Below, in pieces: positions 2,612-18,981 of a stretch of DNA of 64,000 bases. The translations under genes were made by a program, and so were the position numbers. Below the pieces are notes generated by a model, which saw only the letters and a list, made by a program, of their open reading frames with translations, had not been told where the DNA came from and did no database searches. Source of the stretch: Acidimicrobiales bacterium (lineage in GTDB: Bacteria; Actinomycetota; Acidimicrobiia; Acidimicrobiales; CATQHL01); assembly GCA_963664235.1 (NCBI GenBank), contig OY760933.1, forward strand, positions 2,395,419-2,459,418. Reading direction: 5' to 3'. Position 1 is the first letter of the stretch. Each line of letters opens with the position of its first letter.

Positions 2612-2995
2612 CTAGACGTCGACGCCGCCGATGTCCGGCGGGGAGATGTCCGCCGGCGACGCCTCGGCGAACAGTCGCGAGAACGACGCCGTGACCTGCG
2701 GCGCCCGGCGCTGGAAGTACGCCATGACGACTTGGCGGGCGTCGACGCCGAAGGTGGCGTGCATGGCCGGATCGTCGTCGAGGTAGCGGAAGTCCCCCAG
2801 GTGTCCCAGGAACGTCCGCGCGGTCTCCAGATCCTCGCTGCGGCGGTGCCTCAGCCACACCGCCAGCGCCGTGCCGCCCATGAGGACGGTGCCCGCTGGC
2901 AGTGCCGCGGCGACCTTCGGCCACGCCTGCACCGTGCCCTCGGGCAGCAGGCCGCGCAGGTCCTCAAGGGTTGTCACGGCGCCACCGTGTTGCAT
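2612..2995 (-). CDS. short nucleotidyltransferase-like protein (AbiEii N-terminal-like)
   Basis: LMGGTALAVWLRHRRSEDLE resembles the GGTAL..HR.S.DlD motif of AbiEii-type toxins. Only about 127 aa, so possibly truncated. Confidence 0.35.
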   Translation of the reverse strand: MQHGGAVTTLEDLRGLLPEGTVQAWPKVAAALPAGTVLMGGTALAVWLRHRRSEDLETARTFLGHLGDFRYLDDDPAMHATFGVDARQVVMAYFQRRAPQVTASFSRLFAEASPADISPPDIGGVDV

Positions 2996-3524
2996 CGGCG
3001 GCAAGATCCCGACGATCGCGCGGCACGTGCGGCCTGCAGGCCACCGCCTCGAGCGCCTCGACGGGGAGCGCGAACAGCGCCCACCCCCACGACGTCACAT
3101 CGTCGCTGGTGAGGATCCGCTCGGCCACGAAGGTCGCATCACGCGGCAACCGGTAGGCCGCCACGTCCCCGGACCAGAACAGGTGCCCGAACCGCTCCGG
3201 CGCCCTCTCGGGCATCGGCCCGACGCCGAGCCGCGGCGCCTGGGTGTGTCCCAGCACGTCGCCGGCGACAAGCCACGCCGTCGCCGCCAATCGCCAGATC
3301 CGCTCGCGCCGCACCGGGCGCGACGGCACCGGTTCCACTTCGCATTCCACGAGACCGACGCCGGCGAGGCCCTCCAGCGCGGCGGCTGCCTCCGGGGCGG
3401 AGAGGTCAGCGGCGGCGACAACCGACGCCGGATACAGGCCCAGCGGGCGGTGCGACAGCGCCACGAGGACGCGTTCCTCGTTACGACTCAGGCGCAGCGC
3501 CCGCGTCGGCGCAACAACCGCCAT
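2964..3524 (-). CDS. winged-helix DNA-binding protein (antitoxin candidate)
   Basis: Internal ATG at 3524. LSRNEERVLVALSHRPLGLYPASVVAAADLSAPEAAAALEGLAGVGLVE is a wHTH-like segment. Overlaps the downstream NTase-like gene. Confidence 0.4.
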   Translation of the reverse strand: MAVVAPTRALRLSRNEERVLVALSHRPLGLYPASVVAAADLSAPEAAAALEGLAGVGLVECEVEPVPSRPVRRERIWRLAATAWLVAGDVLGHTQAPRLGVGPMPERAPERFGHLFWSGDVAAYRLPRDATFVAERILTSDDVTSWGWALFALPVEALEAVACRPHVPRDRRDLAADATRWRRDNP

Positions 3525-3923
3525 GTCGCCAGCCGAAGCGGCGGCCTCGAGCAGCGACCTCCGAGACAGCCTGGCGCGAGCCGGCCGGTGGCGTGCTGGC
3601 CACCGACGGCCGGCTGCTTCCCACCAGCGGCTGGCGCCTGGCCGGACTCGCCGCGCTCGCCCCGTTGGGGAGGCACTCAACGAGCAAGCCACCGCCACGA
3701 GGCGGGGCATGTGACAACGAGCCATCCCCCCCCGGCGCCGGGCGGCGCGCCCACGCGCGGGCACGGCGCCATCACTGACGGCGAGCTGGTCCGGGCGGCG
3801 CATCGCCAACCGCTGGCGGCGCGTGTCGGTCACGGTCTGCAGCTAGCCGAGCGCCGGAGTGCACGAGGTTGCAGCAGGTCCGCGCGATACTGTTCGCGTG
3901 CTGTGCCAGGACTAGACGAGACA

Positions 3924-4406
3924 ATGGCGCCGCGTTCCCTCGGGGACCAGATCCTCGACGCGCTCGGGTGCAGCAACGGCCCCCTCTCTGTTGCCGCCCT
4001 CGCCGAGACGCTCGGGCGGGGCCGGACCGCCGTCGCGCGGGCCGCGCGGCGCCTGTGGGCAGCAGGGCTCATCAGCCCCGAGACACCGCCGCCGGTCGCC
4101 GGGCGCTACCCGACGCCGCTGTGGAGCCTCGGCGGCTCGGTCCCGTGGCGGCCCGGGGACACGCACATGCGTGCGCTGCGTTGCCTGCCCGGGCCCTTCG
4201 ACGACGCCCCCTGCATGCACGAGGCCGTCGCCAAGGCCATCGGCGTCCACCGGCACCACGCCAAAGACCTGCTCTATGACCTGCGGGCCGCCGGCCTCGT
4301 GGAGACATCGGCTCTCGAAGACCACACCGATCTGCGCCGTACCCGCGCGACGTGGCGGCGCACACCTGCCGGCAACAAAGCCTCAGGCCTCGCTCGGCGA
4401 GCCTGA
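3924..4406 (+). CDS. tandem winged-helix (MarR-like) DNA-binding protein
   Basis: MAPRSLGDQILDALGCSNGPLSVAALAETLGRGRTAVARAARRLWAAGLI, plus a second wHTH-like segment AKAIGVHRHHAKDLLYDLRAAGLVE. Confidence 0.5.
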   Translation: MAPRSLGDQILDALGCSNGPLSVAALAETLGRGRTAVARAARRLWAAGLISPETPPPVAGRYPTPLWSLGGSVPWRPGDTHMRALRCLPGPFDDAPCMHEAVAKAIGVHRHHAKDLLYDLRAAGLVETSALEDHTDLRRTRATWRRTPAGNKASGLARRA

Positions 4407-4493
4407 CCTGACGGAGGTGCCGAACTGATTAGCCAGGGCCGGGCCGGCGCCTAAACAACCCAACGGCCCGCGCAAGCGCGACCCCTCGCCGCT

Positions 4494-4723
4494 GTCGGCG
4501 GCGAGGGCGCCCTCGTCGCCTGGCAGAGCAGCACGCCTGTCGCCGGCAACGCTGAGCACTACGCCCGCGTCGTCGCTGAGCGGGCGACTCTGCGGCGCCT
4601 CGCCGGCGTGCCGGTGTGGATCGACGACAACGCGATCGTCGGCGTGTTCGACATCCGCGCCCGGGCGCGACGCCACCACGCCGCCTACGGGCACCTCAGC
4701 CTCATCGTCGTGGACTACCTGCA
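4494..4723 (+). pseudogene. replicative DNA helicase (DnaB-like) remnant with large internal deletion
   Basis: A single frame reads ..PVAGNAEHYARVVAERATLRRLAG (DnaB N-domain end) joined directly to VPVWIDDNAIVGVFDIRARARRHHAAYGHLSLIVVDYLQ (DnaB C-domain). The Walker A region is missing. Confidence 0.55.
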
Positions 4724-4869: not shown

Positions 4870-5412
4870 TCAGACGTCGAGGCCGGTGTCGGGAGTTGTC
4901 TCGATGACGTCCTCGATCCAGCGGCGCTGGCGTTCCCCGAGGCGCTCGCCGGCGAAGACGTCCGCCACGATGTCGTCGACCTCATCGGCTGAGGGGGAGC
5001 CGCAGTGACCCAGGAGCCGCAGCGTGTCGGCGATGTCGGACTCCCGCGCCGCGCGGGCCTTCATGGCTAGGAGGTGCCGGGGCGATGCGACGGTGACGAC
5101 AAGGCCCGGATGATCGAAGACGACGCTGCTGTGGGCATCGTCGGTCAGCGGCAGGTAGCCGGTCACCTGCTCGTTGAGCCAGGTGCCCAGCCAGCCCCGC
5201 TCGGCGGCGACCTCATGCACCGCGGCGAACAGTTCGCCGCGGCCCTCGCTGATGGCGACATCGAGATCCCGGGTGAGCCGGTCGGCGTCGTAGGCGAACG
5301 CCATGGTGCCGCCGCCGGTGAGGTACACGCGGGCTTGGACGCTGCGCCGCTCCAGGCGCCGAGCGACGTCGAACAGGGCGTCGCGAGGTTCGACGGCGGA
5401 CCGCGGGTCCAC
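4870..5412 (-). CDS. nucleotidyltransferase-fold protein (toxin-like)
   Basis: VYLTGGGTMAFAYDADRLTRDLDVAI is a GG..R.T.DlD nucleotidyltransferase motif. GTG start abuts the stop of 5413..5766. Confidence 0.55.
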   Translation of the reverse strand: MDPRSAVEPRDALFDVARRLERRSVQARVYLTGGGTMAFAYDADRLTRDLDVAISEGRGELFAAVHEVAAERGWLGTWLNEQVTGYLPLTDDAHSSVVFDHPGLVVTVASPRHLLAMKARAARESDIADTLRLLGHCGSPSADEVDDIVADVFAGERLGERQRRWIEDVIETTPDTGLDV

Positions 5413-5766
5413 CTAGACGACGACGAGTTCGCGGCGCGGGAACCAGATGCCGTGCGCCTCGAAATGGCCGGGCGTGGTGAGGATCGTCCCGGCCCGCTCG
5501 CGGGGAAAGCGCCGAACCGCGAACCAGAACCGCGCCAGGTAACGGTGCGGAGTGGACGTCCACGGCGGCGCCGGCAGGTCGGCGTGGTACGCGAGATGCT
5601 CCGCATACGCGGCCAAGAAGGCGTCCCACCGCGAATCGAACAGCGCAGGCTCGGCGGCCAACAACACGACCCGTTCGCCCGGCGAGGCGTGCTGGAACGC
5701 CAAGCCGAACTCGTGCAAGATCAGCCGGAGCCGGAAATCATCATCACTGGCGCGCAGCGCCGGCAC
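5413..5766 (-). CDS. partner of NTase 4870..5412, probably 5'-truncated by the IS110 insertion
   Basis: The frame stays open upstream of the GTG at 5766 into the IS110 flank with no further start. No HTH is visible in the 117 aa. Confidence 0.4.
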   Translation of the reverse strand: MPALRASDDDFRLRLILHEFGLAFQHASPGERVVLLAAEPALFDSRWDAFLAAYAEHLAYHADLPAPPWTSTPHRYLARFWFAVRRFPRERAGTILTTPGHFEAHGIWFPRRELVVV

Positions 5767-7050
5767 ATAAGCCGCCGACTTGTTAACTCGTGGCTGGTTG
5801 GCGGGCTCGGCCGAGTTCGTCGATCGAGGGAGGTGTCGGGACGCTCGGTAAGCCTCTGCCGCCTTCGGGTTGGCTCGGTAATGGCATGCGGCCCGGCACC
5901 TCCCGCCGTCGCCACGAGTGGCTCAACAGAGGCCTGCATTGCCCCAAGTCGGACTGCCCTCCAGCGACACCGCACCAGAACCCTGAGCCCCGAGGAGGAG
6001 CCCATGTCCGTCACGATCGGCTGCGACGCCCACAAGACCTCAGTCACGATTGCCGTGCTCGATCAACGCCGAGGGGTGTTGCATCAGCAGACCTTCCCAA
6101 CCAACCGCGTCGGACGCCGCGACCTGGTCACGGTCGGCCGGCGTTGGCCGAACCGGCGCTGGGCCGTCGAAGGCGCCGCCGGCAGCGGCGCACCCGTCGC
6201 TCAGCACCTTGTCGCCGCAGGCGAGCAGGTCGTCGATGTGCCCGCCAAACTCGCCACCCGCGTTCGGCTGTTGTCCACCGGTCACGGCCGCAAGAACGAC
6301 GATGCCGACGCGATCGCGGTCGGCATCGCGGCGATCGACAACGACCGACTCAACGGCGTCGCCGCCGAAAGTCACGCCACCACGCTGCGACTCCTCGCCG
6401 ACCGTCGCGACGACCTGTGTCGGCAACGCACCCAGACGCTCAACCGGCTGCACGCCATGATGGCCCACCTGGTCCCCGGCGAGAAGATCTCCCGCGGCTC
6501 GATCGACACCGCACGCCAACTCCTCCGCCGAGTGCGGTCCACCGACCCGGTCACCAAGACTCGACGCCAGCTCGCTGTCGAGCTCCTCGCTGATCTTCGC
6601 CACCTCGACCGGGCGCTCGCCTCGCTCGAGACCCGCACCACCGAAGCCGTCGCCGAGAGCCACACCTCGCTGACCGAATTGTTCGGCATCGGCCCGGTCC
6701 TAGCCGCCAAGATCCTCGGCCACGTCGGCGACATCACCCGCTTCAACAGCAAAGACCAGTTCGCGTCCTACACCGGAACCGCACCGATCGAAGCCTCCTC
6801 CGGCGACGTCGTTCGGCATCGCCTCTCCCGAGCCGGCAACCGACAACTGAACTCGGCGCTCCACATCATGGCGCTCTCCCAGATCCGCCAACCCACCGCT
6901 GGACAGGACTACTACCGGCGCAAGATCGCCGAGGGTAAGAGCCGTCGAGAAGCCCTTCGCTGCGTCAAGCGACGGCTGTCTGACCTGGTCTTCCGCACCC
7001 TCCTCGCCGACCATCGACGCCATCTCGCCCCGTCGACTTGACACACAGAG
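5767..7050 (+). mobile_element. IS110-family insertion sequence (boundaries approximate)
   Basis: Contains transposase 6004..7041. Bounded on the left by the truncated gene at 5766 and on the right by the broken IS256 transposase at about 7055. Confidence 0.6.
6004..7041 (+). CDS. IS110-family transposase
   Basis: MSVTIGCDAHKTSVTIAVL, RWAVEGAAGSG and GRKNDDADAIAV (DEDD motifs). C-terminal LFGIGPVLAAKILGHVGDITRFNSKDQFASYTGTAPIEASSG..HRLSRAGNRQLNSALH. Confidence 0.9.
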   Translation: MSVTIGCDAHKTSVTIAVLDQRRGVLHQQTFPTNRVGRRDLVTVGRRWPNRRWAVEGAAGSGAPVAQHLVAAGEQVVDVPAKLATRVRLLSTGHGRKNDDADAIAVGIAAIDNDRLNGVAAESHATTLRLLADRRDDLCRQRTQTLNRLHAMMAHLVPGEKISRGSIDTARQLLRRVRSTDPVTKTRRQLAVELLADLRHLDRALASLETRTTEAVAESHTSLTELFGIGPVLAAKILGHVGDITRFNSKDQFASYTGTAPIEASSGDVVRHRLSRAGNRQLNSALHIMALSQIRQPTAGQDYYRRKIAEGKSRREALRCVKRRLSDLVFRTLLADHRRHLAPST

Positions 7051-7363: not shown

Positions 7364-7580
7364 CGGTGTGTCCTCCTCGATGAGTGAGTAGTTGCTCTCA
7401 CCGAGGATCATGCCGATGACCCACCTACAGGTGGACCCTCCCAGCTACCTCAAAATCCCACTGTAAGTATGTCCGTGGCGCTCCGGAAGGGGTGCCAGGC
7501 TGGTGGCGGCGGCACCGCTCCTCGCCGATCCGTGAACCTCCCCGGGACGTTCAGGGTTTGTGGGTCGGCTTGGCTGGGGG

Positions 7581-8009
7581 TCAGATGTCTAGTTCGGTGA
7601 ACGCTGTTCGGCTCGCTCTGTACATGAATGGGCCCTCGTGTGTGAGGAGGGCCTTGATCTTGAGCCATTGGTTCATCAGGACCTCTAGTTGGCCCCATTT
7701 CGTGTCGGCGTCTCTTGGCCAGAGAAGGACCATTCGTGCTCCGTGGTCAAGGACGGATTGCCGTTCGGCTACGTGGTTGCGGGTCTGGTTGTCTCGGCTG
7801 ATGATCAGGTAGCCCGCGTGTGTGACTTGGGGGATCCACTCGGTGTCGGGGATGTCGCTGCTTGTGATGAGGCACGGCGGCCTGATTCTCTTGTGGACTG
7901 TGGCGCCTTGGTCTCCGGGGTATGTGCTGTCGGCGCGTAGTTGGCCGATGAGCATTCCCAGGCCGCGAATATCGGCGTCGAAGTAGAAGCGGACGACAGC
8001 GGGTTTCAC
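7581..8009 (-). CDS. PIN-like / Mut7-C-like (DUF5615-type) putative toxin
   Basis: VVRFYFDADI..DTEWIPQVTHAGYLIISRDNQ..HGARMVLL. GTGA overlap with the upstream DUF433 gene. Lower GC than the surroundings. Confidence 0.45.
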   Translation of the reverse strand: MKPAVVRFYFDADIRGLGMLIGQLRADSTYPGDQGATVHKRIRPPCLITSSDIPDTEWIPQVTHAGYLIISRDNQTRNHVAERQSVLDHGARMVLLWPRDADTKWGQLEVLMNQWLKIKALLTHEGPFMYRASRTAFTELDI

Positions 8010-8737
8010 GCCGCTTTTTGGGCGCGGCTCTTGCGGTTGTTGGCGCTGCGTCGAGAGTGTTCGTAGGCCCGCGCCCAGATGACGTCGTCGATGTCGAGGT
8101 CGAACTGTGCTGCTACGTCGTGTTCGTCCTCTCCTCCCTCAAGGTGGTTGTCGATCGCTTCCGTGCTGATGCCTTTTATGGCGGGCCGGCCGAAGCGGTG
8201 GGTCGGCCGACAGCGGACAGGGGAGTGCTGGTCATCGTGGGGACGCCATCCAACCGCCAGATCCGCTTCCCAGTCGACACGACTGATAAACGAGGCCGCT
8301 GGCGGGGTGAGCACGAGTTGGCCGTCCGTCTTGGCTACAAGCCAGAAGTCCCCTTGGAGGCCAGACTCTTCCTGGACCTTGAGCAGCAGTCGAGGACCGT
8401 TGCCCACGAAAGGCTTGGAATGGGCGAGCGGGTATAGGGTCCCCTCCTCCTCCCGCAGTTTTCGGACGAATTGCCTGATCTCGCCAAGCTGCACCTGCTG
8501 TGCGCGGCGGTACTCTCGGAGGAGCGCCGCCTCGACAAACTCGCCCCAGGTGAGACGGCTAACGCCTGTGGGCTCGGGACGGATCACGGGCGGATACTCG
8601 CGGCCGTGATCAGACTTGCCCTCTAGCCACCAGTGCAGGGTTGGCCGTGGGACCCCGAGGATCTTCGCTGCTTCTGGCAGGGAGTAGACCGGCCGGTCCA
8701 ATAGGTCCGCGCTCAGGGCCGTATGATCGTTGGGCAT
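8006..8737 (-). CDS. HTH + DUF433-type putative antitoxin
   Basis: ATG at 8737 with a GGAGGA RBS. VYSLPEAAKILGVPRPTLHWWLEG is an HTH. C-terminal RFGRPAIKGISTEAIDNHLEGGEDEHDVAAQFDLDIDDVIWARAYE resembles DUF433. Confidence 0.55.
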   Translation of the reverse strand: MPNDHTALSADLLDRPVYSLPEAAKILGVPRPTLHWWLEGKSDHGREYPPVIRPEPTGVSRLTWGEFVEAALLREYRRAQQVQLGEIRQFVRKLREEEGTLYPLAHSKPFVGNGPRLLLKVQEESGLQGDFWLVAKTDGQLVLTPPAASFISRVDWEADLAVGWRPHDDQHSPVRCRPTHRFGRPAIKGISTEAIDNHLEGGEDEHDVAAQFDLDIDDVIWARAYEHSRRSANNRKSRAQKAA

Positions 8738-8811
8738 GCCGCCTGTCCTCCGTTGGGCAATTGCATAGATCGGTGTTCCATGGGTGGGTTCATGGGTCGA
8801 TCCGGCGGGGG

Positions 8812-9183
8812 TCAGATCTCGCCGAGGGTGCCTTGTCGGAATGCGATGTCGAATTGACTGAGGTAGTCCATTCCGACGATGAGGTCGAACTGGTCCCACT
8901 GCTTGTTCACCACCCCGATCTCTAACCCTTGGGCGCTGAATGGGGGTACTTGGATCGTCAGAGCGGCTAGACCCACATCTTCTTCGCCTTCCCCGAACCC
9001 CGTGACCCGAATTCTGCCTTTGCGCATGCCGACGTTGAGACCGTAGCTGTCAACGATTCGTTTCGGCAGGAACGTCTTGGGGGAACCGGTGTCGATGAGG
9101 CCCCTGAACTCGTGTTCAGGGGAGCCGTCCTGCAGCGCAGAGACGCGTGTGGGCACGATTGGAAACAGCGGGCCTGCCGTCAT
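8812..9183 (-). CDS. retropepsin-like (clan AA) aspartic protease
   Basis: GLIDTGSPKTFLP is the D-T-G active-site motif. About 120 aa, as expected for a single retropepsin lobe. C-terminal LIVGMDYL. Confidence 0.7.
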   Translation of the reverse strand: MTAGPLFPIVPTRVSALQDGSPEHEFRGLIDTGSPKTFLPKRIVDSYGLNVGMRKGRIRVTGFGEGEEDVGLAALTIQVPPFSAQGLEIGVVNKQWDQFDLIVGMDYLSQFDIAFRQGTLGEI

Positions 9184-10446: not shown

Positions 10447-10557
10447 CTGGGCCGACGCACCCAACTGCTCGGCGACGTCCCCGACGGGCCGGCCCGCCAC
10501 GATCAGTTCTTGAACCTTGCGCCGAAACGCCGTCGAACGCCTCCTCGGCACGATGAC
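10447..10557 (-). pseudogene. IS3-family orfA fragment
   Basis: VIVPRRRSTAFRRKVQELIVAGRPVGDVAEQLGAS parallels VPRRYPTAFRRKVLDLIEAGRPVAEVADQLGVS of orfA 14474..14818. Confidence 0.55.
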
Positions 10558-10702
10558 GCCCCCATGGTCGACGTCCCGAGAGTCAAGCAGCCCGACCGCG
10601 AAAAACCCGGGGCAGACTACCAACCGCGCCATCGCGGACCCACTCCCCGCTCAAATCCGAAGAGCCGCTATGCGTAGAGCGTTCGAGATCATCAACAACG
10701 GA

Positions 10703-10810
10703 ATGTCGCTGGCGGGATTCTCTCGTCGCTACGCGGATGATGCCGTCGCGGAGGCGCAGTTTGAGGCGTGGCGCTGGCCCAACGGCGTGCGCTGCGCGCA
10801 CTGCGGCGGT
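10703..10810 (+). pseudogene. IS1595-type transposase zinc-ribbon fragment
   Basis: FSRRYADDAVAEAQFEAWRWPNGVRCAHCGG. The RWP.G..C..CG pattern is typical of the N-terminus. Confidence 0.45.
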
Positions 10811-10885
10811 GGGGTCATCGGGGCGGTACTCCTTCGCGATCGCCCAGCGCAGCACCTTGGAGATTCGTCCTTTGAGGCGCTGCAC
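10796..10885 (-). pseudogene. tyrosine integrase fragment
   Basis: ISKVLRWAIAKEYRPDDPTAAV parallels ISVIMRWAIAQGHRTDDPASGA of integrase 14958..16121. Confidence 0.4.
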
Positions 10886-10933
10886 CGTTTCGGCGTTCGT
10901 CGCCCACTCCCTCCTCGGGCGTCCGCCGCGGCT

Positions 10934-11476
10934 CTAGCGAAAGACGCGCGTGTACTGGGTGCAGGTGTCTTGTAGTGATGGCGGGAACGGCGGTCGCAGC
11001 GTCTGTTGGTTGCACATCTCCGTGAGGGTCTGGATGTGGGGAACGCAGTCTCGGGGACGGTTCAGGCGCGGGTAATCGCCCTTGGTCTCCTCAACGACCT
11101 CGCCGTCGAGGTAGGCCAACCAAGTCTCGATATTCCACGTCGGCACGCAGAGGAGAACCTGATCGGCGTCGTTGAGTGGGGCGACCTGCTGCTCGGCGCA
11201 GGCGGTGTCGAGCGAGACGCGGCGTCCGGCAACGCCCTTGGCGTCGCCGTCGATCATCGCGATCAGATAGGCTCGCTCGCCGCTCTTCGACCGGACGGCC
11301 CGTAATTCGTTTGGGAATGTCTCTCGCACGTATTGCTCGGCGGAGCCTTTGCCCGGCGGTGGCCGGAGAATGCGAAAGTGGCGCAGGCTCCAGCCCAGTT
11401 CGACGAGAAGTTTCTTGGCGAAAGTCTCGTGCTGTGTGTCTTCGCAGAGAAGGACGATCCGGACGTTACGGCTCAC
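10934..11476 (-). CDS. mini-Toprim-like protein (DUF4276/DUF4435-like), partner of the ABC ATPase
   Basis: VRIVLLCEDTQHETFAKKLL (Toprim Glu after strand 1). YLIAMIDGDAKG (DxD). VPTWNIETWL. The GTG start overlaps the ATPase stop (GTGA). Confidence 0.5.
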   Translation of the reverse strand: MSRNVRIVLLCEDTQHETFAKKLLVELGWSLRHFRILRPPPGKGSAEQYVRETFPNELRAVRSKSGERAYLIAMIDGDAKGVAGRRVSLDTACAEQQVAPLNDADQVLLCVPTWNIETWLAYLDGEVVEETKGDYPRLNRPRDCVPHIQTLTEMCNQQTLRPPFPPSLQDTCTQYTRVFR

Positions 11477-12606
11477 GGGTACCAGCCGCGCGCCATGCGC
11501 TCCGAGAGTTTGAGGCCGTCGTCGGCCGCGAGCGCCTCAAGAGGCCGTGCGCTGACGGCGGTAGAGGACTCGCGGACGAACAGAACGCCCCGGTGCGCGC
11601 CGAGGTAGTCGATCAGTTCGGGATGGTGCGAGCAGACGACCGCCTGCGACGGTGTGCTGTCACAGAGATCGACAAGTTCGAGCAGCCACGGCTGGATCTC
11701 GGTCAGTGCTAAGAAGTTGTCGGGCTCGTCGAGGAACAGGGTCACGCCGGGGGCGTGTTGGCGGAAGTGGAGTAGCGCGTAGAGCACCACCAGCGCCCTC
11801 TGGCCGTCGGATAGCTCGTCGAAGCGCAGCTTGTAGCTCGACGCGGCGTGAGCGCGGTTGCCGGCGAAGTCGAGCAGAAGCGCTCGGCTGTCTAAGCCGG
11901 ATTGCTGAAGATGAATGTTGCTAAAGCCGTCGACGGCCTCTCGGAGAGCCTCGACGTGAGTCACGGACGATGCGGGGTTCTCCTGTACGGCATGGCGATA
12001 CCAGTCGACGAAGTTCTCGGCGTGGCGGCCGAGTAGCTGGTCTTCGCTGGTGGACTCGGCGCGCAGTAGTGCGGGACGGATGTTGCACACCACGGTCGCT
12101 CGCATGGCGGCCTTGAAGGCCGTCAGCCGAGTGTTGATCGGCTGGGCGACAACGCGTGCGAGAGCCGATTCGGTCCAGTCTGTCTTGAACGTCGGACCAG
12201 CCGATCCGTCGTCTCGGTAGAGCTGCACGTCGCCCATCTCGCACTTAAACAAAATCGTCGGACCGGCGCCGAGGCTCTCCCAGGCAATGCGAGAATGCTT
12301 TCCATCGTCGGCGTGCTCAACCTCCAGGCGGTATCGGAACGATTCGTCACCCACTTCGACATCGACCTCGAACACCTGCTTGGGGTCTGTCTGCCAGCGC
12401 GTCAGTGTCGACGGATGAAACGCGACCTGATCAGTAACTTTTGCCTCAGCCGAGAGCAGCTTGCGAAGCCCATAGACGACATCGAGTATCGCCGTCTTGC
12501 CGGTTCCGTTCGCTCCGAGCAGCAGAACCATGTTCTCCAACTCGAACTCGAAGTTCTGGAGACACTTGTAGTTGTGCACGTAGATCCGTCTCAGCACGGA
12601 GACCAT
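11473..12606 (-). CDS. ABC-type (AAA_21/AAA_15-like) ATPase
   Basis: ATG at 12606. IYVHNYKCL..LLLGANGTGKT (Walker A), LSDGQR (signature), TLFLDEPD (Walker B), VCSHHP (H-loop). The 130-aa P/R/A-rich upstream extension of the ORF was rejected. Confidence 0.8.
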   Translation of the reverse strand: MVSVLRRIYVHNYKCLQNFEFELENMVLLLGANGTGKTAILDVVYGLRKLLSAEAKVTDQVAFHPSTLTRWQTDPKQVFEVDVEVGDESFRYRLEVEHADDGKHSRIAWESLGAGPTILFKCEMGDVQLYRDDGSAGPTFKTDWTESALARVVAQPINTRLTAFKAAMRATVVCNIRPALLRAESTSEDQLLGRHAENFVDWYRHAVQENPASSVTHVEALREAVDGFSNIHLQQSGLDSRALLLDFAGNRAHAASSYKLRFDELSDGQRALVVLYALLHFRQHAPGVTLFLDEPDNFLALTEIQPWLLELVDLCDSTPSQAVVCSHHPELIDYLGAHRGVLFVRESSTAVSARPLEALAADDGLKLSERMARGWYP

Positions 12607-13002
12607 CGTACTGCCACTGCTAGGAAGCACGGTTGAAGCTGGACGATGGCGATCGGCTCGGCCAGCCCGTCTGGCTGACGCTGGCGGTGATGGCGCTGTT
12701 CGCCTAGATGATGCGATCGCGGGCGTAGCTGGACGAGGCGAAGGGCACGGGTTGCGACACGTTGTGGCTGAGTCCCGGCAGCGGGGGAGCGCACTGCGGG
12801 GGAGGGGGAGGCTGCGGGCAGGAGAGGTTGCTTGGCAGTGCCTCCAGCCGCCGGTCCGAGGGCAGCGGGTTGCGTCGGGCTCCTGCCAAACGAGCACGTA
12901 GAACGCTGTGTCGGGCGCGACCGGCCACATACGGGTCCGGTCACCGGCCGGCGCGACGGTGACTATCTGCTCGGTGCGCGTCCCGGCGCGCAACAGCACC
13001 TG

Positions 13003-13593
13003 TGAGGGGGACCCGTTTGTGAGTCCAGGTGTTATGGGAGTTCGGGTTGGTGTTGGTGCGCCTTCTAGTGCGCAGCGTAGGCGGCGGGGGTGAGCCCGCC
13101 GAGGGATCGGTGGGGCCGGTAGGTGTTGTGTTCGTGGCGCCAGTCCTCGAGGACGGCGCGGGCTTCGGTGATGTTGGCGAAGTCCTCAACGTTGAGGCAC
13201 TCGTCTCGGAGGCGGCCGTTGAAGGACTCGATGAAGGGTGTTTCCCACGGCGAGCCGTGTTCGATGTAGGCGGTTTGGGTGCGCCAGATGCGGCACCAGT
13301 CCCGCAGCGCCTCGGCGGTGAGTTCGGGGCCGTTGTCCATGCGCAGATGCGCCGGCGCTCCCCTCCCGGCGACGAGGCGCTCGATGGTGGCGACGACGCC
13401 GTCGGCGTCGATGCTGTGGGAGGCGTCGATGGCGAGGGCCTCCCGGGTGAACTCGTCGACGACGTTGAGCAGTTTGATGCGGCCAGATCGGCGGTCTCGT
13501 CGAACTGGAAGTCCAGTGCCGACACATCGTTGGGACGCTGGGCGCGCAGGCGCGCCGCAGACCCGTCAGTGAACCGTCCTGGTCTGCCCGGAG
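13003..13593 (-). pseudogene. IS3-family orfB remnant, frameshifted and interrupted by a second IS3 element
   Basis: RPNDVSALDFQFDETAD, then a frame break, then IKLLNVVDEFTREALAIDASHSIDADGVVATIERLVAGRGAPAHLRMDNGPELTAEALRDWC..YRPHRSLGGLTPAAYA. The terminal ..CCCCTCA end lies near 13003. Confidence 0.7.
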
Positions 13594-13617: not shown

Positions 13618-14459
13618 TCAGCTTGCTTGATTTCGGGCAACGGTGGTGGTGTGGCGGATCTCGTATTCGACGGGCGTGAGCATGCCGAGTGAGGAGTGCC
13701 GCTGTTGCCGGTTGTGGAAGATCTCAAGGTAGTCGAAGATCGCATTGGAGAGTTCCAGACGGGTTCTCCAGCGCCGGCGGTTCAGGAGTTCGACTTGCAT
13801 GCGCGCCCAGAACGACTCGATCACGGCATTATCGAGGCAGTCCCCGATCGAGCCCAGCGACACGCTGAGCCCGCAGTCCAGGGCGCGTTGGGTGAATGCC
13901 CAGGAGGTGAACTGACCGGATTCAATCGGTGGTCGGAGTGAATGATTGACCCGGAGGGTTGGCGGTTCTCGATGGCCATGGCGAGTGCATTGGTGGCGAG
14001 GGTGGCGTGTGGCCGCGAGCCGATGGCCCAACCCATGACGCGGCGACTGAAGACATCCAGCACGACCGCGCAGTACACCTTGCCTTCCCGGGTGGAGTGC
14101 TCGGCAATATCGGTGACCCACAGCTGATCGGGCTCGTCACGGGCGAACTGGCGGTCGACCAGGTCACTGGCGGTGGGCTGGTTGGGGACCTTGCGCCAGC
14201 GGGACCGGCCCGGCAGCCCCGCCAGACCGTTGCGGCGCATCACCAGCTCAACGGTGCAACGCGCGACGATGATGCCGCGTCCCTGGGTCAACTCGGCGTG
14301 GACGCGCCGGGCGCCGTCGGTGCCTCGGGAGGCGTGATGGATCTCACCAGTGACCTCCAGCAGCATCGCGTGGCGCACCGAGCGCGCTGACGGCGGCCGC
14401 CGGCGCCAGGCGTAGTAGCCCGACACCGAGATGCCCAACACGCCGCAGCAAACCTCCAC
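13618..14459 (-). pseudogene. IS3-family transposase OrfB with an extra frameshift
   Basis: The -1 frame relative to orfA reads RFEVVAAVVADDHPVEVCCGVLGISVSGYYAWRR..LWVTDIAEH..IIHSDH. The frame then breaks near 13930 and resumes as GQFTSWAFT..DNAVIESFW..RRHSSLGMLTPVEYE. Confidence 0.7.
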
Positions 14460-14473
14460 CGGATGGTCGTCAG

Positions 14474-14818
14474 CTACGACGGCGGCGACGACCTCGAAAC
14501 GTCTATTGGGTCGGTTTGGTCCTTCAGCAGCTCATTGGCCCGCTTGGTGACCGCCAATTCACACTTGAGTTCGCGGATCCGCTGACGAGCCGCAGCCAAC
14601 TCCGCGGACTCCGCTGTCGTCACGCCGGGCCGCAGCCCGCGATCCACCTGATCCTGCTTGCGCCAGTTGTAGATCGTCTGGGTCGACACGCCGAGTTGGT
14701 CAGCGACCTCCGCGACGGGCCGACCCGCCTCGATCAGATCCAGAACCTTGCGCCGAAACGCAGTTGGATACCTCCTCGGCACGATGACCTCCCTTCGGTC
14801 GACGTGCCCGAAAGTCAA
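14474..14818 (-). CDS. IS3-family transposase OrfA
   Basis: VPRRYPTAFRRKVLDLIEAGRPVAEVADQLGVSTQTIYNWRKQ, followed by a coiled-coil. The likely true start is the GTG at 14782, after GGAGG. Confidence 0.8.
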   Translation of the reverse strand: MTFGHVDRREVIVPRRYPTAFRRKVLDLIEAGRPVAEVADQLGVSTQTIYNWRKQDQVDRGLRPGVTTAESAELAAARQRIRELKCELAVTKRANELLKDQTDPIDVSRSSPPS

Positions 14819-14957: not shown

Positions 14958-16121
14958 TTACGCCACGGCAGTTCCGATGTAGGTGGCCCATTGGTCCATG
15001 ACGGGTCGGCGGCGGTCGAGGAGGTCGCTGCGCTGGTAGGCGCCTTCGACGCCGGCGACGACGTGTCCGAGTGCGGCTTCGGCGACCTCGCGGGGGACGC
15101 CGGTGTCGGCGCACCAGCTACGGAAGCTGGCCCGGAATCCGTGCGGTACCGCCGGGATGCCGAGATCCATGAGCAGCTTGCGCATGGTGTTGTTGGAGAG
15201 TTGCCGGCCCGTCGTGCTCGGGAAGATCAACCCGGACCGGTCGGCGAGGCTCCGGGCTGCTTCGAGGATCTCCAGGGCGCGGCCGCTGAGGGCCACGCGA
15301 AGCTCGCCACCGGTCTTCGTGCGGGCTCCGGGAACCGTCCACGTGGCCGCGTCGGCGTCGACTTCATCCCAGATGGCGCCGCGGAGCTCGCCGCTGCGAC
15401 ATGCGGTGAGGACGAGGAACTCGAAGGCGAGCTTGGTTACCGGCGACGCTTGCGACGCACGGACACCAGCGACGGCGGCGGCCACCTCGCTGTGCGGCAG
15501 GGAGGGTTGGCGATTCTGGCGGGTGTCTTGGCGTGGGAGGGCGGCGGCGATGGCGCCGCTGGCCGGGTCGTCGGTGCGGTGTCCTTGGGCGATGGCCCAG
15601 CGCATGATGACCGAGATGCGCTGGCGCACCCGTTTGGCGGTCTCGGCCCGTTCTGTCCAGATCGGCGCCACGATGCTCATGACGTCCGCGGTGGTGATCT
15701 CGTCGACCGGCTTGTGGCCGATCTTGGGGTAGGCGTAGGTGTCCAGCGACGATCGCCAGATCTCCGCGGAGCGGCCGCTGTTCTTCCAGGAGGCGGCGTG
15801 GATCAGAATGACCTTCTCCGCGGCGTCCGCGAACGTCGGCACCCCGCTGACGCGGGGGTGGCGGCCCTCTTCGACGGCGCGGCGGTTCTCAAGCGCTTTG
15901 CGCCGCGCCATCTTGAGGCTCACGATCGGGTAGGAGCCGAGGCCGAGGTTGGTGACGCGCCCGTTGATGCGGATGCGCTGGCTCCAGGTCTTCGACAGGC
16001 GCCCGTTCGCCATCGGCTTGACGAGCAGTGACAGGCCGAATCCGCCGCGGCCGTCGCCGTAGCGGCCGGGGCGCGAAACGCTCTCCACGAAGCGCGCCGA
16101 CAGCTGCGCGGGACGCTCCAA
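14958..16121 (-). CDS. int: P4-type tyrosine recombinase/integrase
   Basis: N-terminal RYGDGRGGFGLSLLVKP..GSYPIVSLKMAR (DUF4102-like). Catalytic ACRSGELRG, HGFRASFRSW and GAYQRSD. Lies directly 3' of ssrA. Confidence 0.9.
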   Translation of the reverse strand: MERPAQLSARFVESVSRPGRYGDGRGGFGLSLLVKPMANGRLSKTWSQRIRINGRVTNLGLGSYPIVSLKMARRKALENRRAVEEGRHPRVSGVPTFADAAEKVILIHAASWKNSGRSAEIWRSSLDTYAYPKIGHKPVDEITTADVMSIVAPIWTERAETAKRVRQRISVIMRWAIAQGHRTDDPASGAIAAALPRQDTRQNRQPSLPHSEVAAAVAGVRASQASPVTKLAFEFLVLTACRSGELRGAIWDEVDADAATWTVPGARTKTGGELRVALSGRALEILEAARSLADRSGLIFPSTTGRQLSNNTMRKLLMDLGIPAVPHGFRASFRSWCADTGVPREVAEAALGHVVAGVEGAYQRSDLLDRRRPVMDQWATYIGTAVA

Positions 16122-16289
16122 GGTTCGATTCCCTCCCCGCTATCACCGATCAGATATTGCTTAGATTATCACACTTTGCATGCGTACCGATGATACGAGT
16201 TGAAGCCTCGTGGAGCAAGGATTAGGCCGCTGACCTGGGATTTGTGGGCTTCATGGCGCATCATGGGGTCTCATGAAGCCTCAAAGTTG

Positions 16290-16674
16290 TGGAGCTGGGG
16301 GGAATCGAACCCCCGTCCGGCGAGCGGTTGCCGGCTCCGGTACGACCATTCCCGATCGCAGCATTACGGATTGCGTGCCGTCGGGTCGGCTGCCCTTGCG
16401 GGCTCCGCCGGATCTTTCTCCGGTGTCAGCGGTCTTTCTCGCCGTCAGCGGTCTTTCCCAGCTGTCCTCCTCTGCTTCTGTTGCCAGGCTGCAGCGGACA
16501 GGCCCCGCGTGCCCCCGTGGGGGTCGCAGTTACCTCACAGACCGATCAGGTGATCAGGCTGCGAGGAGCACGGGTTCATCATTGCCGTGTCTTGTGGTGC
16601 CCCGTTTTTGGAGTCTGAGCAACTCCGGTCGCGTAGCACGGTTCCCGGTCTCGACGTCGAAACCGATCAGCCCC
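16290..16674 (-). ncRNA. ssrA: tmRNA
   Basis: 5' GGGGCTGATCGGTTTCGAC.. and 3' ..GGGGGTTCGATTCCCCCCAGCTCCA. The acceptor stem has a G3:U wobble. CCA is not encoded. Internal reading frame GGC AAT GAT GAA CCC GTG CTC CTC GCA GCC TGA (GNDEPVLLAA*). Confidence 0.85.
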
Positions 16675-16790
16675 TTGTCAATGTGCGGTACGCCACTGTA
16701 CCGACCTCGTGCGACATCGGTCGGCGCTGATCCGTCCTCTCCGGGGTCCCAACGTGGGAGCGTCCGGATCTGCTGCCGTCCTCGGCAGGC

Positions 16791-16870
16791 TGTCGCTGTA
16801 CGGGCACATTGTCCTGTTGTCGTTGTACGACGATATTGTGCTGTTGTCGCTGTACCAGTACATTATTGTC
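16791..16870 (+). promoter_or_regulatory. three 27-bp direct repeats immediately upstream of hipB (operator candidates)
   Basis: TGTCGCTGTACGGGCACATTGTCCTGT / TGTCGTTGTACGACGATATTGTGCTGT / TGTCGCTGTACCAGTACATTATTGTC, starting at 16791, 16818 and 16845. Confidence 0.5.
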
Positions 16871-17197
16871 ATGTCCCTGAACGAAGACACGACGGAAGCT
16901 GCGGCTCCAAGTCGCTCGGAGGTTGGGATGAGACCGCTGCAAACGAGTCGGGACCTCGGTATGGCCATCCGCCGAGCGCGACATGACAAGGGCCTGTCGC
17001 AGGTCGAGTTGGCGGCGCGGGCAGGGGTGGGGCGTCCCTGGCTGTCCGAGACGGAGAACGGCAAGCGCACAGCGGAGATCGGTCGCATCCTGCTGGTCCT
17101 CAGTTCGCTGGATCTCGCGGTCGCTCTGATTCCAGCGCCGACACAGGGCGATGCCGGCGTCGACCTCGATTCTCTGCTGGCGGACACGGTCGGCTGA
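16871..17197 (+). CDS. hipB: XRE-family HTH antitoxin HipB
   Basis: LGMAIRRARHDKGLSQVELAARAGVGRPWLSETENGKR. The stop overlaps the hipA ATG (TGATG). The start could instead be near 16928 (MRPLQ). Confidence 0.7.
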   Translation: MSLNEDTTEAAAPSRSEVGMRPLQTSRDLGMAIRRARHDKGLSQVELAARAGVGRPWLSETENGKRTAEIGRILLVLSSLDLAVALIPAPTQGDAGVDLDSLLADTVG

Positions 17198-18483
17198 TGC
17201 CGGCTGACGTGCTGCTGGTCGCCCTCGAGGGGCGCTCCATCGGCCGGATCGAGCGCGCCCAACACGGTCACCTGCGGCTCCGCTACGACGATGGAATCGA
17301 TGCCGCCGGGACGCCGCTGTCGGTGTCGATGCCGTTGGCTGTTGCGCACCACGGCGACGCCCGCGTCACGCCGTGGCTGTGGGGGATTCTCCCGGAGAAT
17401 GCGGACGTCCTGGCGCGCTGGGGGCGCCGGTTCGGGGTCTCGGTGGCGTCGCCGTTCCCGCTTCTTGCCACACCCGTGGGTCGGGACTGCCCAGGAGCGG
17501 TGCAATTCTGCCCGCCGAGCGAACACGAGAACCTGCTGAGGCGCCAGGGCGACGTGGCCCCCCAGACCGAGGCACAAGTGGCCCAGCGGCTGCGAGACCT
17601 GCGCGGCGACGCCACCTCCTGGCTCGGGTCGGACTTCGCGGGACGGTTCAGCCTCGCCGGCGCGCAGGCAAAGACAGCGCTGCACTTCGCGTCGGGACGC
17701 TGGGGTGTTCCGGCGGGGGCGGTGCCCACGACTCACATCCTCAAGCCCGGTATCTCGGGACTTCAGCATCTCGAACTCAACGAGCACCTCTGCCTGCGTA
17801 CCGCGGCCCTCGCTGGACTGCCTGCGGCACGCACCAGGATCGAAACCTTCGAGGATCAAACCGCCATCGTCGTCACGCGGTTCGACCGCACGCACTCCGG
17901 TGGTTCGCTGATCCGCGTGCACCAGGAAGATCTCTGCCAGGCGCTCGGAGTGCACCCTGCCCGCAAGTACCAGGCCGACGGCGGCCCGACCCCCGGCCAC
18001 GTGGCGGAGTTGCTGCGGGCATGCGTCGCCGGAGCCGCCGCCGAGGAGGACGTGTGGCGATTCGCCGACGCGTTGGCGTTCAACTGGCTGATCGGTGGCA
18101 CCGACGCCCATGCCAAGAACTACAGCCTGCTGCTTGCCGGAACCCGGGTGCGTCTAGCTCCGCTCTACGACGTGGCGTCGACGCTCCCCTACGACGACAG
18201 CGACGGCCACCAACTCCGTCTCGCCATGAAGGTCGGCCGGGAGTACAGGCTGCGACGAACCGATAGGCGCAGCGCATGGGAGAAGGTCGCAGCCGAGCTG
18301 GGCGTCGACGCCGCTCGGCTGCTCCAGCGGGTGCTGGACCTCGCCGGGAAGATCCCCGCGGCGCTGGAGCAGGCAACGGCCGAGGAGGATGTGGCGAGGA
18401 TCGAATCCGATCTCCCGCGGCGGCTATTGGACGGCGTTGCCGCACGCGCGCTCCACTGCGCCCGGTCCTTCAACGCGGGCTGA
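17197..18483 (+). CDS. hipA: HipA-family serine/threonine kinase toxin
   Basis: FSLAGAQAKTAL, HILKP, IRVHQEDLCQALG and GGTDAHAKNYSLL (catalytic D.H.KN). Confidence 0.85.
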   Translation: MPADVLLVALEGRSIGRIERAQHGHLRLRYDDGIDAAGTPLSVSMPLAVAHHGDARVTPWLWGILPENADVLARWGRRFGVSVASPFPLLATPVGRDCPGAVQFCPPSEHENLLRRQGDVAPQTEAQVAQRLRDLRGDATSWLGSDFAGRFSLAGAQAKTALHFASGRWGVPAGAVPTTHILKPGISGLQHLELNEHLCLRTAALAGLPAARTRIETFEDQTAIVVTRFDRTHSGGSLIRVHQEDLCQALGVHPARKYQADGGPTPGHVAELLRACVAGAAAEEDVWRFADALAFNWLIGGTDAHAKNYSLLLAGTRVRLAPLYDVASTLPYDDSDGHQLRLAMKVGREYRLRRTDRRSAWEKVAAELGVDAARLLQRVLDLAGKIPAALEQATAEEDVARIESDLPRRLLDGVAARALHCARSFNAG

Positions 18484-18492
18484 CGGACTGGG

Positions 18493-18981
18493 TCAGCGAC
18501 CGTCCCGGTCGTGGGTGCGGGCGGCCTGCGACATGGCGCGGCGAGCCTCCAGTTCGGCCTCCCGGCGGGCCAGGATCGTGCGCCGGTCCACCTTGCGGCG
18601 CCGCCGGGCCAGCGCCATCTCCACCTTCGCCCGGCCGTCGCGGAAGTACAGCGACAGGGGGATCAGCAGCAGGCGGTCCTGCTCCACCCGGGCTTTGATC
18701 CGGCTGATCTCCGAGCGGTGCAGCAGGAGCTTGCGCGGCCGGTCGGGGTCGGGGGCGAAGGCCGCAGCGACGGTCGGCCGGGGCGGCACGTGCATGGAGT
18801 GCAGCCACACCTCGCCGCTGGCCACCTTGCCGTACGCCTCGGTGAGCGTCACCGTGCCGTCGCGCAGCGACTTCACTTCGCTGCCCCGCAGCACCATGCC
18901 GCACTCGTAGGTGCCGATGATGTCGTAGTCGCGCTGGGCGCGCCGGTTCGTGGCAATCACCTTGACGTCGGCGTCGTCCAT
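18493..18981 (-). CDS. smpB: SsrA-binding protein
   Basis: IATNRRAQRDYDIIGTYECGMVLRGSEVKSLR..LHRSEISRI..LIPLSLYF. Confidence 0.9.
   Translation of the reverse strand: MDDADVKVIATNRRAQRDYDIIGTYECGMVLRGSEVKSLRDGTVTLTEAYGKVASGEVWLHSMHVPPRPTVAAAFAPDPDRPRKLLLHRSEISRIKARVEQDRLLLIPLSLYFRDGRAKVEMALARRRRKVDRRTILARREAELEARRAMSQAARTHDRDGR

Follow-up and report, generated by a model that had tools for sequence, protein, structure and literature searches.

Pairs in which an ATP-binding cassette (ABC) ATPase is combined with a Toprim nuclease are a recurring design of bacterial immunity, with OLD, Gabija, PARIS and MADS as examples. We analysed a gene pair of this kind in a 64,000-nucleotide stretch of DNA from an Acidimicrobiales bacterium (GenBank assembly GCA_963664235.1, contig OY760933.1, positions 2,395,419 to 2,459,418 of the forward strand; the whole stretch is hereafter called the window). 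The pair encodes an ABC-type ATPase of 377 residues and a small Toprim-like protein of 180 residues, and an initial annotation of the window had described it as a PARIS/OLD-like operon of a compact ABC ATPase and a mini-Toprim protein. The reading as an ATPase and Toprim pair stood, but the nearest known relatives of the pair are HEC-01 and the MAD3-MAD4 proteins of MADS, not PARIS, OLD or Gabija.

HEC-01 (Hma-embedded candidate 01) is an entry of PADLOC-DB v2 that was found embedded in Hma systems (Payne et al., bioRxiv 10.1101/2024.01.29.577857). It consists of two genes, one for a compact ABC ATPase (HEC-01A; profile lengths of about 363-406 positions) and one for a small protein (HEC-01B; 197-217 positions), which has been described as TOPRIM-like with the metal-binding site of OLD (bioRxiv 10.1101/2024.01.29.577857). 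MAD3 and MAD4 of Pseudomonas aeruginosa are likewise an ABC ATPase and a DUF4276-type Toprim protein, and the PARIS paper lists them among the systems that combine an ABC ATPase with a TOPRIM protein; both DUF4276 and Mad4 are members of the Toprim superfamily (PMC12065111). These two proteins work within MADS, an eight-gene system in which MAD6, MAD7 and MAD8 are mandatory in the authors' model (bioRxiv 10.1101/2023.03.30.534895). Deletion of mad3 or mad4 weakens MADS defence, and mad5 tolerated deletion only when mad2 or mad3 was removed as well (bioRxiv 10.1101/2023.03.30.534895), which suggests a possible toxicity of the MAD3 arm for the cell. The compact class is therefore already catalogued, as HEC-01, as PDC-M38 candidates and as the MAD3-MAD4 sub-module, and its DUF4276/DUF3226 branch has so far been represented either by an untested or negative candidate (HEC-01) or by a part of a larger system (MAD3-MAD4).

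In the window the ATPase gene is located on the minus strand at 12606..11473 and starts with ATG; the small-protein gene follows on the same strand at 11476..10934 and starts with GTG. As read from the sequence, the ATPase gene's stop codon shares a GTGA overlap with the start codon of the small-protein gene (11473..11476, minus strand): the ATPase gene ends in ...TAC CCG TGA, and the GTG AGC of the downstream gene begins within this end. The two open reading frames (ORFs), the overlap and all motifs quoted in the initial annotation were found in place, and both genes are intact and full length. The ATPase frame is open further upstream, to a GTG at 12999, which would give a protein of 508 residues; this longer ORF was rejected and the call of 377 residues was retained, because the homologues are 369-377 residues long and have their first residue at the position of the ATG. 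The GC content of the gene pair is 62.4%, against 68.8% for the window. A scan for promoters and terminators was uninformative in this high-GC sequence. Relatives of both proteins form conserved families, and the pair is more than a chance juxtaposition.

The ATPase carries the motifs GANGTGKT (residues 31-38), LSDGQR (265-270), LFLDEPD (290-296) and CSHHP (325-329). These supply a Walker A motif (31-38), an LSGGQ-like ABC signature (LSDGQ, 265-269), a Walker B motif with D-loop (290-296) and the H-loop histidine (His 327), all in the order expected of an ABC ATPase. Both Pfam families proposed in the initial annotation for this protein were matched, AAA_21 at 7.7e-15 (56.2 bits against a cutoff of 27) and AAA_15 at 2.4e-9. 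In PADLOC the best match was the HEC-01A model PDLC04178 (3.3e-23), which aligned residues 4-343 with profile positions 8-342 of 399; four more HEC-01A models matched at 1.8e-20 to 1.8e-11. The PADLOC mad3 model also matched over its full length and colinearly (8.6e-20), and PDC-M25A was among the best full-length colinear matches. The AriA, PtuA, GajA and Old models of PADLOC gave only partial matches, that of AriA (5.6e-17) being confined to residues 256-333. No NCBIfam model came near its cutoff (MAD3 reached 51.8 bits against 420).

Residues K37, G268, D293 and H327 were invariant across 57 ATPase homologues. The AlphaFold (AF2) model of the ATPase, with a pLDDT of 91 and a pTM of 0.90, was compared with known structures by Foldseek and resembled PtuA, OLD and the Rad50 heads (E 1e-14 to 1e-11, probability 1.00, TM score about 0.5-0.6). 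The nearest solved structures were those of PtuA of Septu / retron type I-A (9nnb, 9kjx and 8eea; E 1e-14 to 1e-12, TM score 0.5-0.6), and the OLD protein of Thermus (6p74) was found at E 7e-13. The same Thermus protein gave the best sequence match in the PDB (4.9e-10), over the N-terminal 40 residues. Because of these profile matches, the invariant residues and the likeness of the model to PtuA, OLD and Rad50, the protein is identified as a compact ABC ATPase, lacking a long coiled coil, of the clade that serves many defence systems.

The small protein contains the motifs VRIVLLCEDTQHE (residues 5-17) and IAMIDGDAKG (72-81), which had been read as a Toprim-like glutamate after the first strand followed by a DxD. 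Its family is large: 1665 cluster representatives were found at E<=1e-3, and 1291 at E<=1e-10, in a library of 1.84 billion sequences with 50% clustering. Among 132 representatives clustered at 50% identity, E12 and D76 were conserved in 100% and D78 in 98%, as the initial annotation would have it, and further acidic residues were kept, E130 (98%), D13 (95%) and E117 (93%); P112 and W119 were likewise nearly fixed. In the AlphaFold model (pLDDT 89.4) two C-terminal helices come after four strand-helix units, whose strands span residues 7-11, 34-37, 70-74 and 107-110. This succession of elements is compatible with the Toprim fold, in which a parallel sheet of four strands in the order 2-1-3-4 forms part of a three-layer alpha/beta structure. 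E12 stands directly after strand 1 and D76-G-D78 directly after strand 3. A glutamate after strand 1 and a DxD after strand 3 are the arrangement that defines Toprim domains (PMC12065111). Conservation and model together delineate a predicted acidic metal site formed by E12, D13, D76, D78, E117 and E130.

A set of 127 diverse relatives of the small protein was scanned singly against Pfam, at E<=0.01, and PADLOC. DUF3226 was matched by 21 of them (best 1.8e-6) and DUF4276 by 12 (best 6.8e-6); the remaining Pfam matches were OLD-like_TOPRIM in one relative and one stray. PADLOC matches were mostly to HEC-01B, mad4, PDC-M38B and PDC-M31B: at E<=0.01 one HEC-01B model was matched by 47 of the 127 relatives (best 2.9e-8) and mad4 by 15. 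These alignments were colinear, as in relative P0104 (residues 1-162 with HEC-01B positions 1-148 of 204) and relative P0260 (residues 3-113 with mad4 positions 5-110 of 110). Among 51 close relatives, 31 matched HEC-01B at E<=1. Taken over the family, these HEC-01B matches show homology, but at a level lower than a system caller would require. The small protein is thus a probable Toprim protein, an assignment that rests on sequence profiles, motifs and secondary structure.

Five cysteines of the small protein (C11, C93, C144, C155 and C172) were conserved in 66-90% of the 132 representatives. A four-cysteine metal site was considered and rejected: each cysteine was lost without regard to the others, which makes an obligate site of this kind unlikely.

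The two genes are strictly linked. A pattern scan covering one genome per species found a relative encoded in 332 species genomes out of about 185,600. The close relatives of the small protein, 332 in number, are about 180 residues long, and none has a Pfam domain. The family spans at least ten phyla, and the 80 loci kept come from Acidimicrobiia, Planctomycetota, several orders of Acidobacteriota, Binatia, Gamma- and Alphaproteobacteria, Spirochaetia, Myxococcota, Nitrospirota and others. An ATPase homologue (45-83% identity) lay immediately upstream on the same strand in 83/83 loci, in agreement with the prediction of the initial annotation that the genes would be conserved as neighbours, and the two genes were separate, not fused, in all 83. 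A 4-nt overlap at the junction was present in 62/84 loci, and most of the others overlapped too. The identities of the two proteins across loci correlated with r = 0.93, indicating that they are inherited and evolve together.

Clustering of the neighbouring ORFs identified no third gene common to more than 11/80 loci, and a conserved third gene was therefore rejected; no conserved helicase was found among the clustered neighbours either. The commonest neighbour clusters over the 80 loci were generic (an ABC transporter; a sigma-54 activator/dehydrogenase), and a methylase of MmeI/Eco57I type stood immediately upstream of the pair in 4/80 loci. Since there is no shared third gene, the pair can be regarded as an autonomous two-gene unit that at times has restriction genes next to it. 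Horizontal mobility is most likely, and the distribution across phyla is patchy.

A tblastn search against plasmids returned two distantly related ATPases from cyanobacteria and no DUF4276 sequence that could serve as a seed. In one of the plasmids (locus L090, Kovacikia minuta plasmid pA) an ATPase gene at 2953-4107, whose product shares 25% identity with the window ATPase, has an ATGA overlap with the next gene, at 4104-4598. The encoded partner has 164 residues, with PEDEAD and DFD motifs, and no Pfam match. Comparison with the small-protein family by hhalign gave an off-register match of 2.6% probability and no detectable relation; the plasmid partner may represent another uncatalogued partner family.

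Set against the described systems, the pair resembles HEC-01 in its two-gene structure, in the kind of protein each gene encodes and in protein size. It differs from HEC-01 in standing outside any Hma system and in belonging to a distinct sequence family without Pfam coverage: DUF3226 (PF11536) and DUF4276 (PF14103) are the sole Pfam families repeatedly matched by relatives of the small protein, and the window protein falls outside both models. MADS, unlike this locus, requires MAD6-8 and includes a methyltransferase, neither of which is present near the window pair; among ten neighbouring window ORFs PADLOC found no match to MAD6-8 or to any other MADS core component, and only weak generic matches to mad1 (HTH).

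The organization of PARIS is similar: the Toprim nuclease has a gene of its own, downstream of that for the ABC ATPase, and the partners co-evolve. The PARIS proteins differ from those studied here: AriB is a 35 kDa DUF4435 protein and AriA has 53-55 kDa, whereas the window ATPase has 377 residues, and DUF4435, one of the families suggested in the initial annotation, was matched at E<=1 neither by the window small protein nor by the 51 relatives. PARIS is also often carried by phages and satellites, whereas no member of the present family turned up in the viral contigs scanned. In OLD and GajA, too, an ABC ATPase goes with a Toprim domain, but as a fusion in one protein of about 500-590 residues, whereas the window has two genes; a helicase partner like GajB of Gabija is also missing from the pair. 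PtuA of Septu / retron type I-A is larger (about 450-550 residues) and its partner PtuB is an HNH nuclease, not a Toprim protein. The pair is accordingly not PARIS (no DUF4435), not OLD or Gabija (unfused, no helicase partner) and not MADS (no MAD6-8). Judged by its architecture and sequence, it is a divergent member of the class formed by a compact ABC ATPase and a putative Toprim protein of DUF4276/DUF3226 type. That both proteins are much shorter than the canonical versions, as had been remarked, is true with respect to PARIS and OLD, but their size is normal for HEC-01A/B and MAD3/MAD4, and belonging to this compact class accounts for the shortness.

Twelve independent neighbourhoods with Pfam annotation were surveyed within a radius of 10 kb, and recognised defence genes were present in six. 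The gene sets observed were McrBC with a PIN-Phd toxin-antitoxin pair and an HNH gene; an MmeI-type methylase with a ResIII helicase, beside smpB; a type ISP restriction enzyme with IS481; an Eco57I-type methylase within a stretch resembling a mobile element; Cas3 with type I cas genes and a second ATPase/DUF3226 pair; and Wadjet with HepT/MNT and two PemK toxins. By our own rough estimate, six of twelve is well above the expectation for random loci.

Two of the related loci showed further features. In locus L092, at a distance of 6 kb from the family pair and close to the type I cas genes, a second, unrelated ABC ATPase (16752-17960) is followed by a 231-residue partner of DUF3226 type (17972-18667), which has VED after the first strand and DAND later, so that two ATPase/Toprim-like pairs occur in one neighbourhood. 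In locus L088, which carries a close relative, a 454-residue Helicase_C protein (7510-8874) ends 4 nt inside the ATPase start. The Helicase_C gene is preceded by an AAA_14/DUF4143 ATPase, and in 5/80 loci a DUF4143 ATPase is encoded close to the pair.

The explanation we favour, with a probability of roughly 70%, is that the pair is a self-contained mobile module in which a small, metal-dependent Toprim nuclease acts in one complex with a compact ABC ATPase, likely in defence. Translational coupling would yield the two proteins in a fixed proportion, for which a single complex is the most likely arrangement. By analogy with OLD, Gabija, PARIS and MAD3-MAD4, the last being the precedent nearest in sequence, an ATPase dimer would serve as sensor and switch, with ATP bound where the Walker A motif of one subunit faces the LSDGQ signature of its partner subunit. 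As the effector, the Toprim protein would cut nucleic acid at the acidic Mg2+ site (E12/D13, D76/D78, E117 and E130). The module would likely serve in defence, with phages or other mobile elements countered directly or through abortive infection. Complex formation, nuclease activity, substrate (DNA or RNA), trigger and defence phenotype are in this sense what we infer for the pair, and its anti-phage function is putative.

Several results weigh against this explanation. The window small protein had no Pfam match at E<=1, whether to DUF4276, one of the families suggested for searching in the initial annotation, or to DUF3226, and no NCBIfam match; HEC-01B was reached at an E value of only 0.045, at which PADLOC would probably miss the window pair as HEC-01. 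A Foldseek search of its model against the PDB and BFVD returned nothing at E<0.01. The weak matches included OLD 6nk8 (E 0.059, TM score 0.36), 6njv, 6p74, topoisomerase II, a RloB-like protein and the DnaG TOPRIM, and lumazine synthase, lipase A and Arf6, which have unrelated alpha/beta folds, were among the top ones. The small-protein profile had no match in the PDB even at E<=10, and hhalign found no relation between the family profile and P2 Old (AF063097); against the DUF3226-type protein of L092, the glutamate and the DxD aligned with a probability of only 2.6%. The claim of a Toprim-like protein was supported by motifs, secondary structure and the profiles of the relatives, but not by a significant structural match. 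It could be argued that the small protein has no catalytic role and serves instead as an adaptor or regulator of generic alpha/beta fold, binding either a ligand or the ATPase through its acidic residues. This is very unlikely, since the acidic pattern corresponds to the Toprim metal site in both position and order and every recurrent family profile match is to a Toprim-type family. The defence role has points against it as well. One HEC-01 system tested in E. coli gave no protection against any phage tried (bioRxiv 10.1101/2024.01.29.577857), no family member was found in the IMG/VR viral contigs scanned, and 4 or 5 of the 12 annotated neighbourhoods were housekeeping or uninformative. No recognised defence system was found in the window, where the nearest candidates are a PIN_10/DUF433 pair and a weak PDC-M08B match. 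The defence context proposed in the initial annotation is seen in about half of the annotated neighbourhoods, and none of the three conditions named there as refuting the idea was borne out.

The failure of the tested HEC-01 system to protect would also suit a selfish addiction module of toxin-antitoxin type, in which a nuclease toxin is restrained by the ATPase and cells that lose the pair are killed, with no real anti-phage role. A tightly coupled, patchy and horizontally spread two-gene cassette, often found beside classical toxin-antitoxin pairs, has the appearance of such a module, but the ATPase belongs to the clade that provides the sensors of proven defence systems (PtuA, OLD, AriA and MAD3), and addiction and abortive-infection defence can coexist; we consider this explanation unlikely. 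It is also improbable that the pair is what remains of a larger system linked to methylation (MADS, Hma-embedded or type ISP/IIG-associated) after the partners were lost to insertion sequence (IS) activity, and that it is non-functional alone in the window. The settings in which MAD3-MAD4 and HEC-01 were described, the methylase directly upstream in the four loci mentioned above, methylase-type restriction genes within 10 kb in several loci and the IS and integrase debris flanking the pair in the window all accord with loss of partners. Against this, many loci have the pair alone among unrelated genes, with no widely shared third gene, and both window genes have remained whole, with nothing of the MADS core among their neighbours. 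Finally, the combination of an ABC ATPase with a Toprim protein recalls RecF and RecR, and RecF is among the weaker matches of the ATPase (TIGR00611, 1.7e-8, N-terminal region only); a few loci also adjoin Fpg/Nei glycosylase genes. A housekeeping DNA-repair module would nevertheless be extremely improbable for a pair that occurs in only about 0.2% of species genomes scattered over many phyla, has a GC content below that of the host, lies in a mobile island with variable neighbourhoods elsewhere, and reaches no NCBIfam cutoff.

Returning to the mobile defence module, it is conceivable, although we hold this tentatively, that the family is a functionally distinct, stand-alone ABC-ATPase/Toprim immune system with its own trigger and target, present mostly in uncultured lineages (Acidimicrobiia, Planctomycetota, Acidobacteriota and Binatia). 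Such a system might, for example, cleave RNA or tRNA on sensing a phage protein, as in PARIS, where the Toprim nuclease is retained by the ATPase and set free once a phage protein provides the trigger. The family would then be the first of the HEC-01 / DUF4276-DUF3226 branch for which activity independent of a methylase or any other partner is demonstrated. The design itself will not surprise a specialist and its novelty is modest. What is new is a large, strictly linked family without Pfam coverage, of which copies like that of the window are probably missed by system callers. With clear mutational targets in the ATPase (K37, D293 and H327) and in the small protein (E12, D76 and D78), the family is a reasonable candidate for asking whether this branch acts alone and what is cut.

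The surroundings of the pair in the window are those of a mobile island, and the integrase fragment, IS1595 and IS3 fragments, IS3 element and ssrA island listed in the initial annotation were all present. Directly downstream of the pair lies a tyrosine-integrase fragment (10583..10885, minus strand; Phage_int_M 8.5e-6, profile positions 66-96 only). A zinc-ribbon fragment of IS1595 is located inside 10517-10975 (plus strand), and an IS3 orfA-like fragment at 10447-10577 is 80% identical to 14678-14808. Upstream of the pair are an rve_3 fragment, taken as IS3 debris (13065-13340, minus strand), and, between the pair and the island integrase, a frameshifted IS3-family element (13618..14818, minus strand; HTH_Tnp_1 1.3e-14, rve 5.7e-17, rve_3 3.4e-10) that consists of orfA (14474-14818) and a frameshifted orfB (13618-14459). 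The island tyrosine integrase is intact (14958..16121, minus strand; Arm-DNA-bind_3, Phage_int_M 4e-26, Phage_integrase 1.3e-17). Next to it is the transfer-messenger RNA (tmRNA) gene ssrA (16287..16674, minus strand), identified by ARAGORN and by Rfam RF00023 (a moderate match, 61.4 bits against a cutoff of 47), which is presumed to be the integration target of the island. A direct repeat of the tmRNA 3' end, sought in order to delimit the island, was not found. The tag peptide given by ARAGORN for the tmRNA (16289-16674, minus strand), GAPQDTAMMNPCSSQPDHLIGL, is unusual, in that its end differs from the usual ..LAA; the resume codon may have been mispredicted.

Other genes of the window were also noted. 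A PIN_10 protein (1.6e-8; 7581-8009, minus strand) overlaps by 4 nt the upstream gene for an HTH_17/DUF433 protein (8006-8899, minus strand), and the two look like a toxin-antitoxin pair within the same island. At 8812-9183 (minus strand) there is a gene for a retropepsin-like aspartyl protease of 123 residues (gag-asp_proteas 6.5e-8, PDC-M08B 4.3e-7). An IS110-family transposase ORF of 655 residues occupies 5074-7041 (plus strand); its DEDD and Transposase_20 domains start only at residue 315, and the long N-terminal extension may be a frame artefact of high-GC sequence or the result of a wrong start. Beyond the tmRNA, PDC-M03A models match an ORF at 17197-18483 (plus strand; best 1e-8), which is overlapped on the opposite strand by an ORF of 477 residues.

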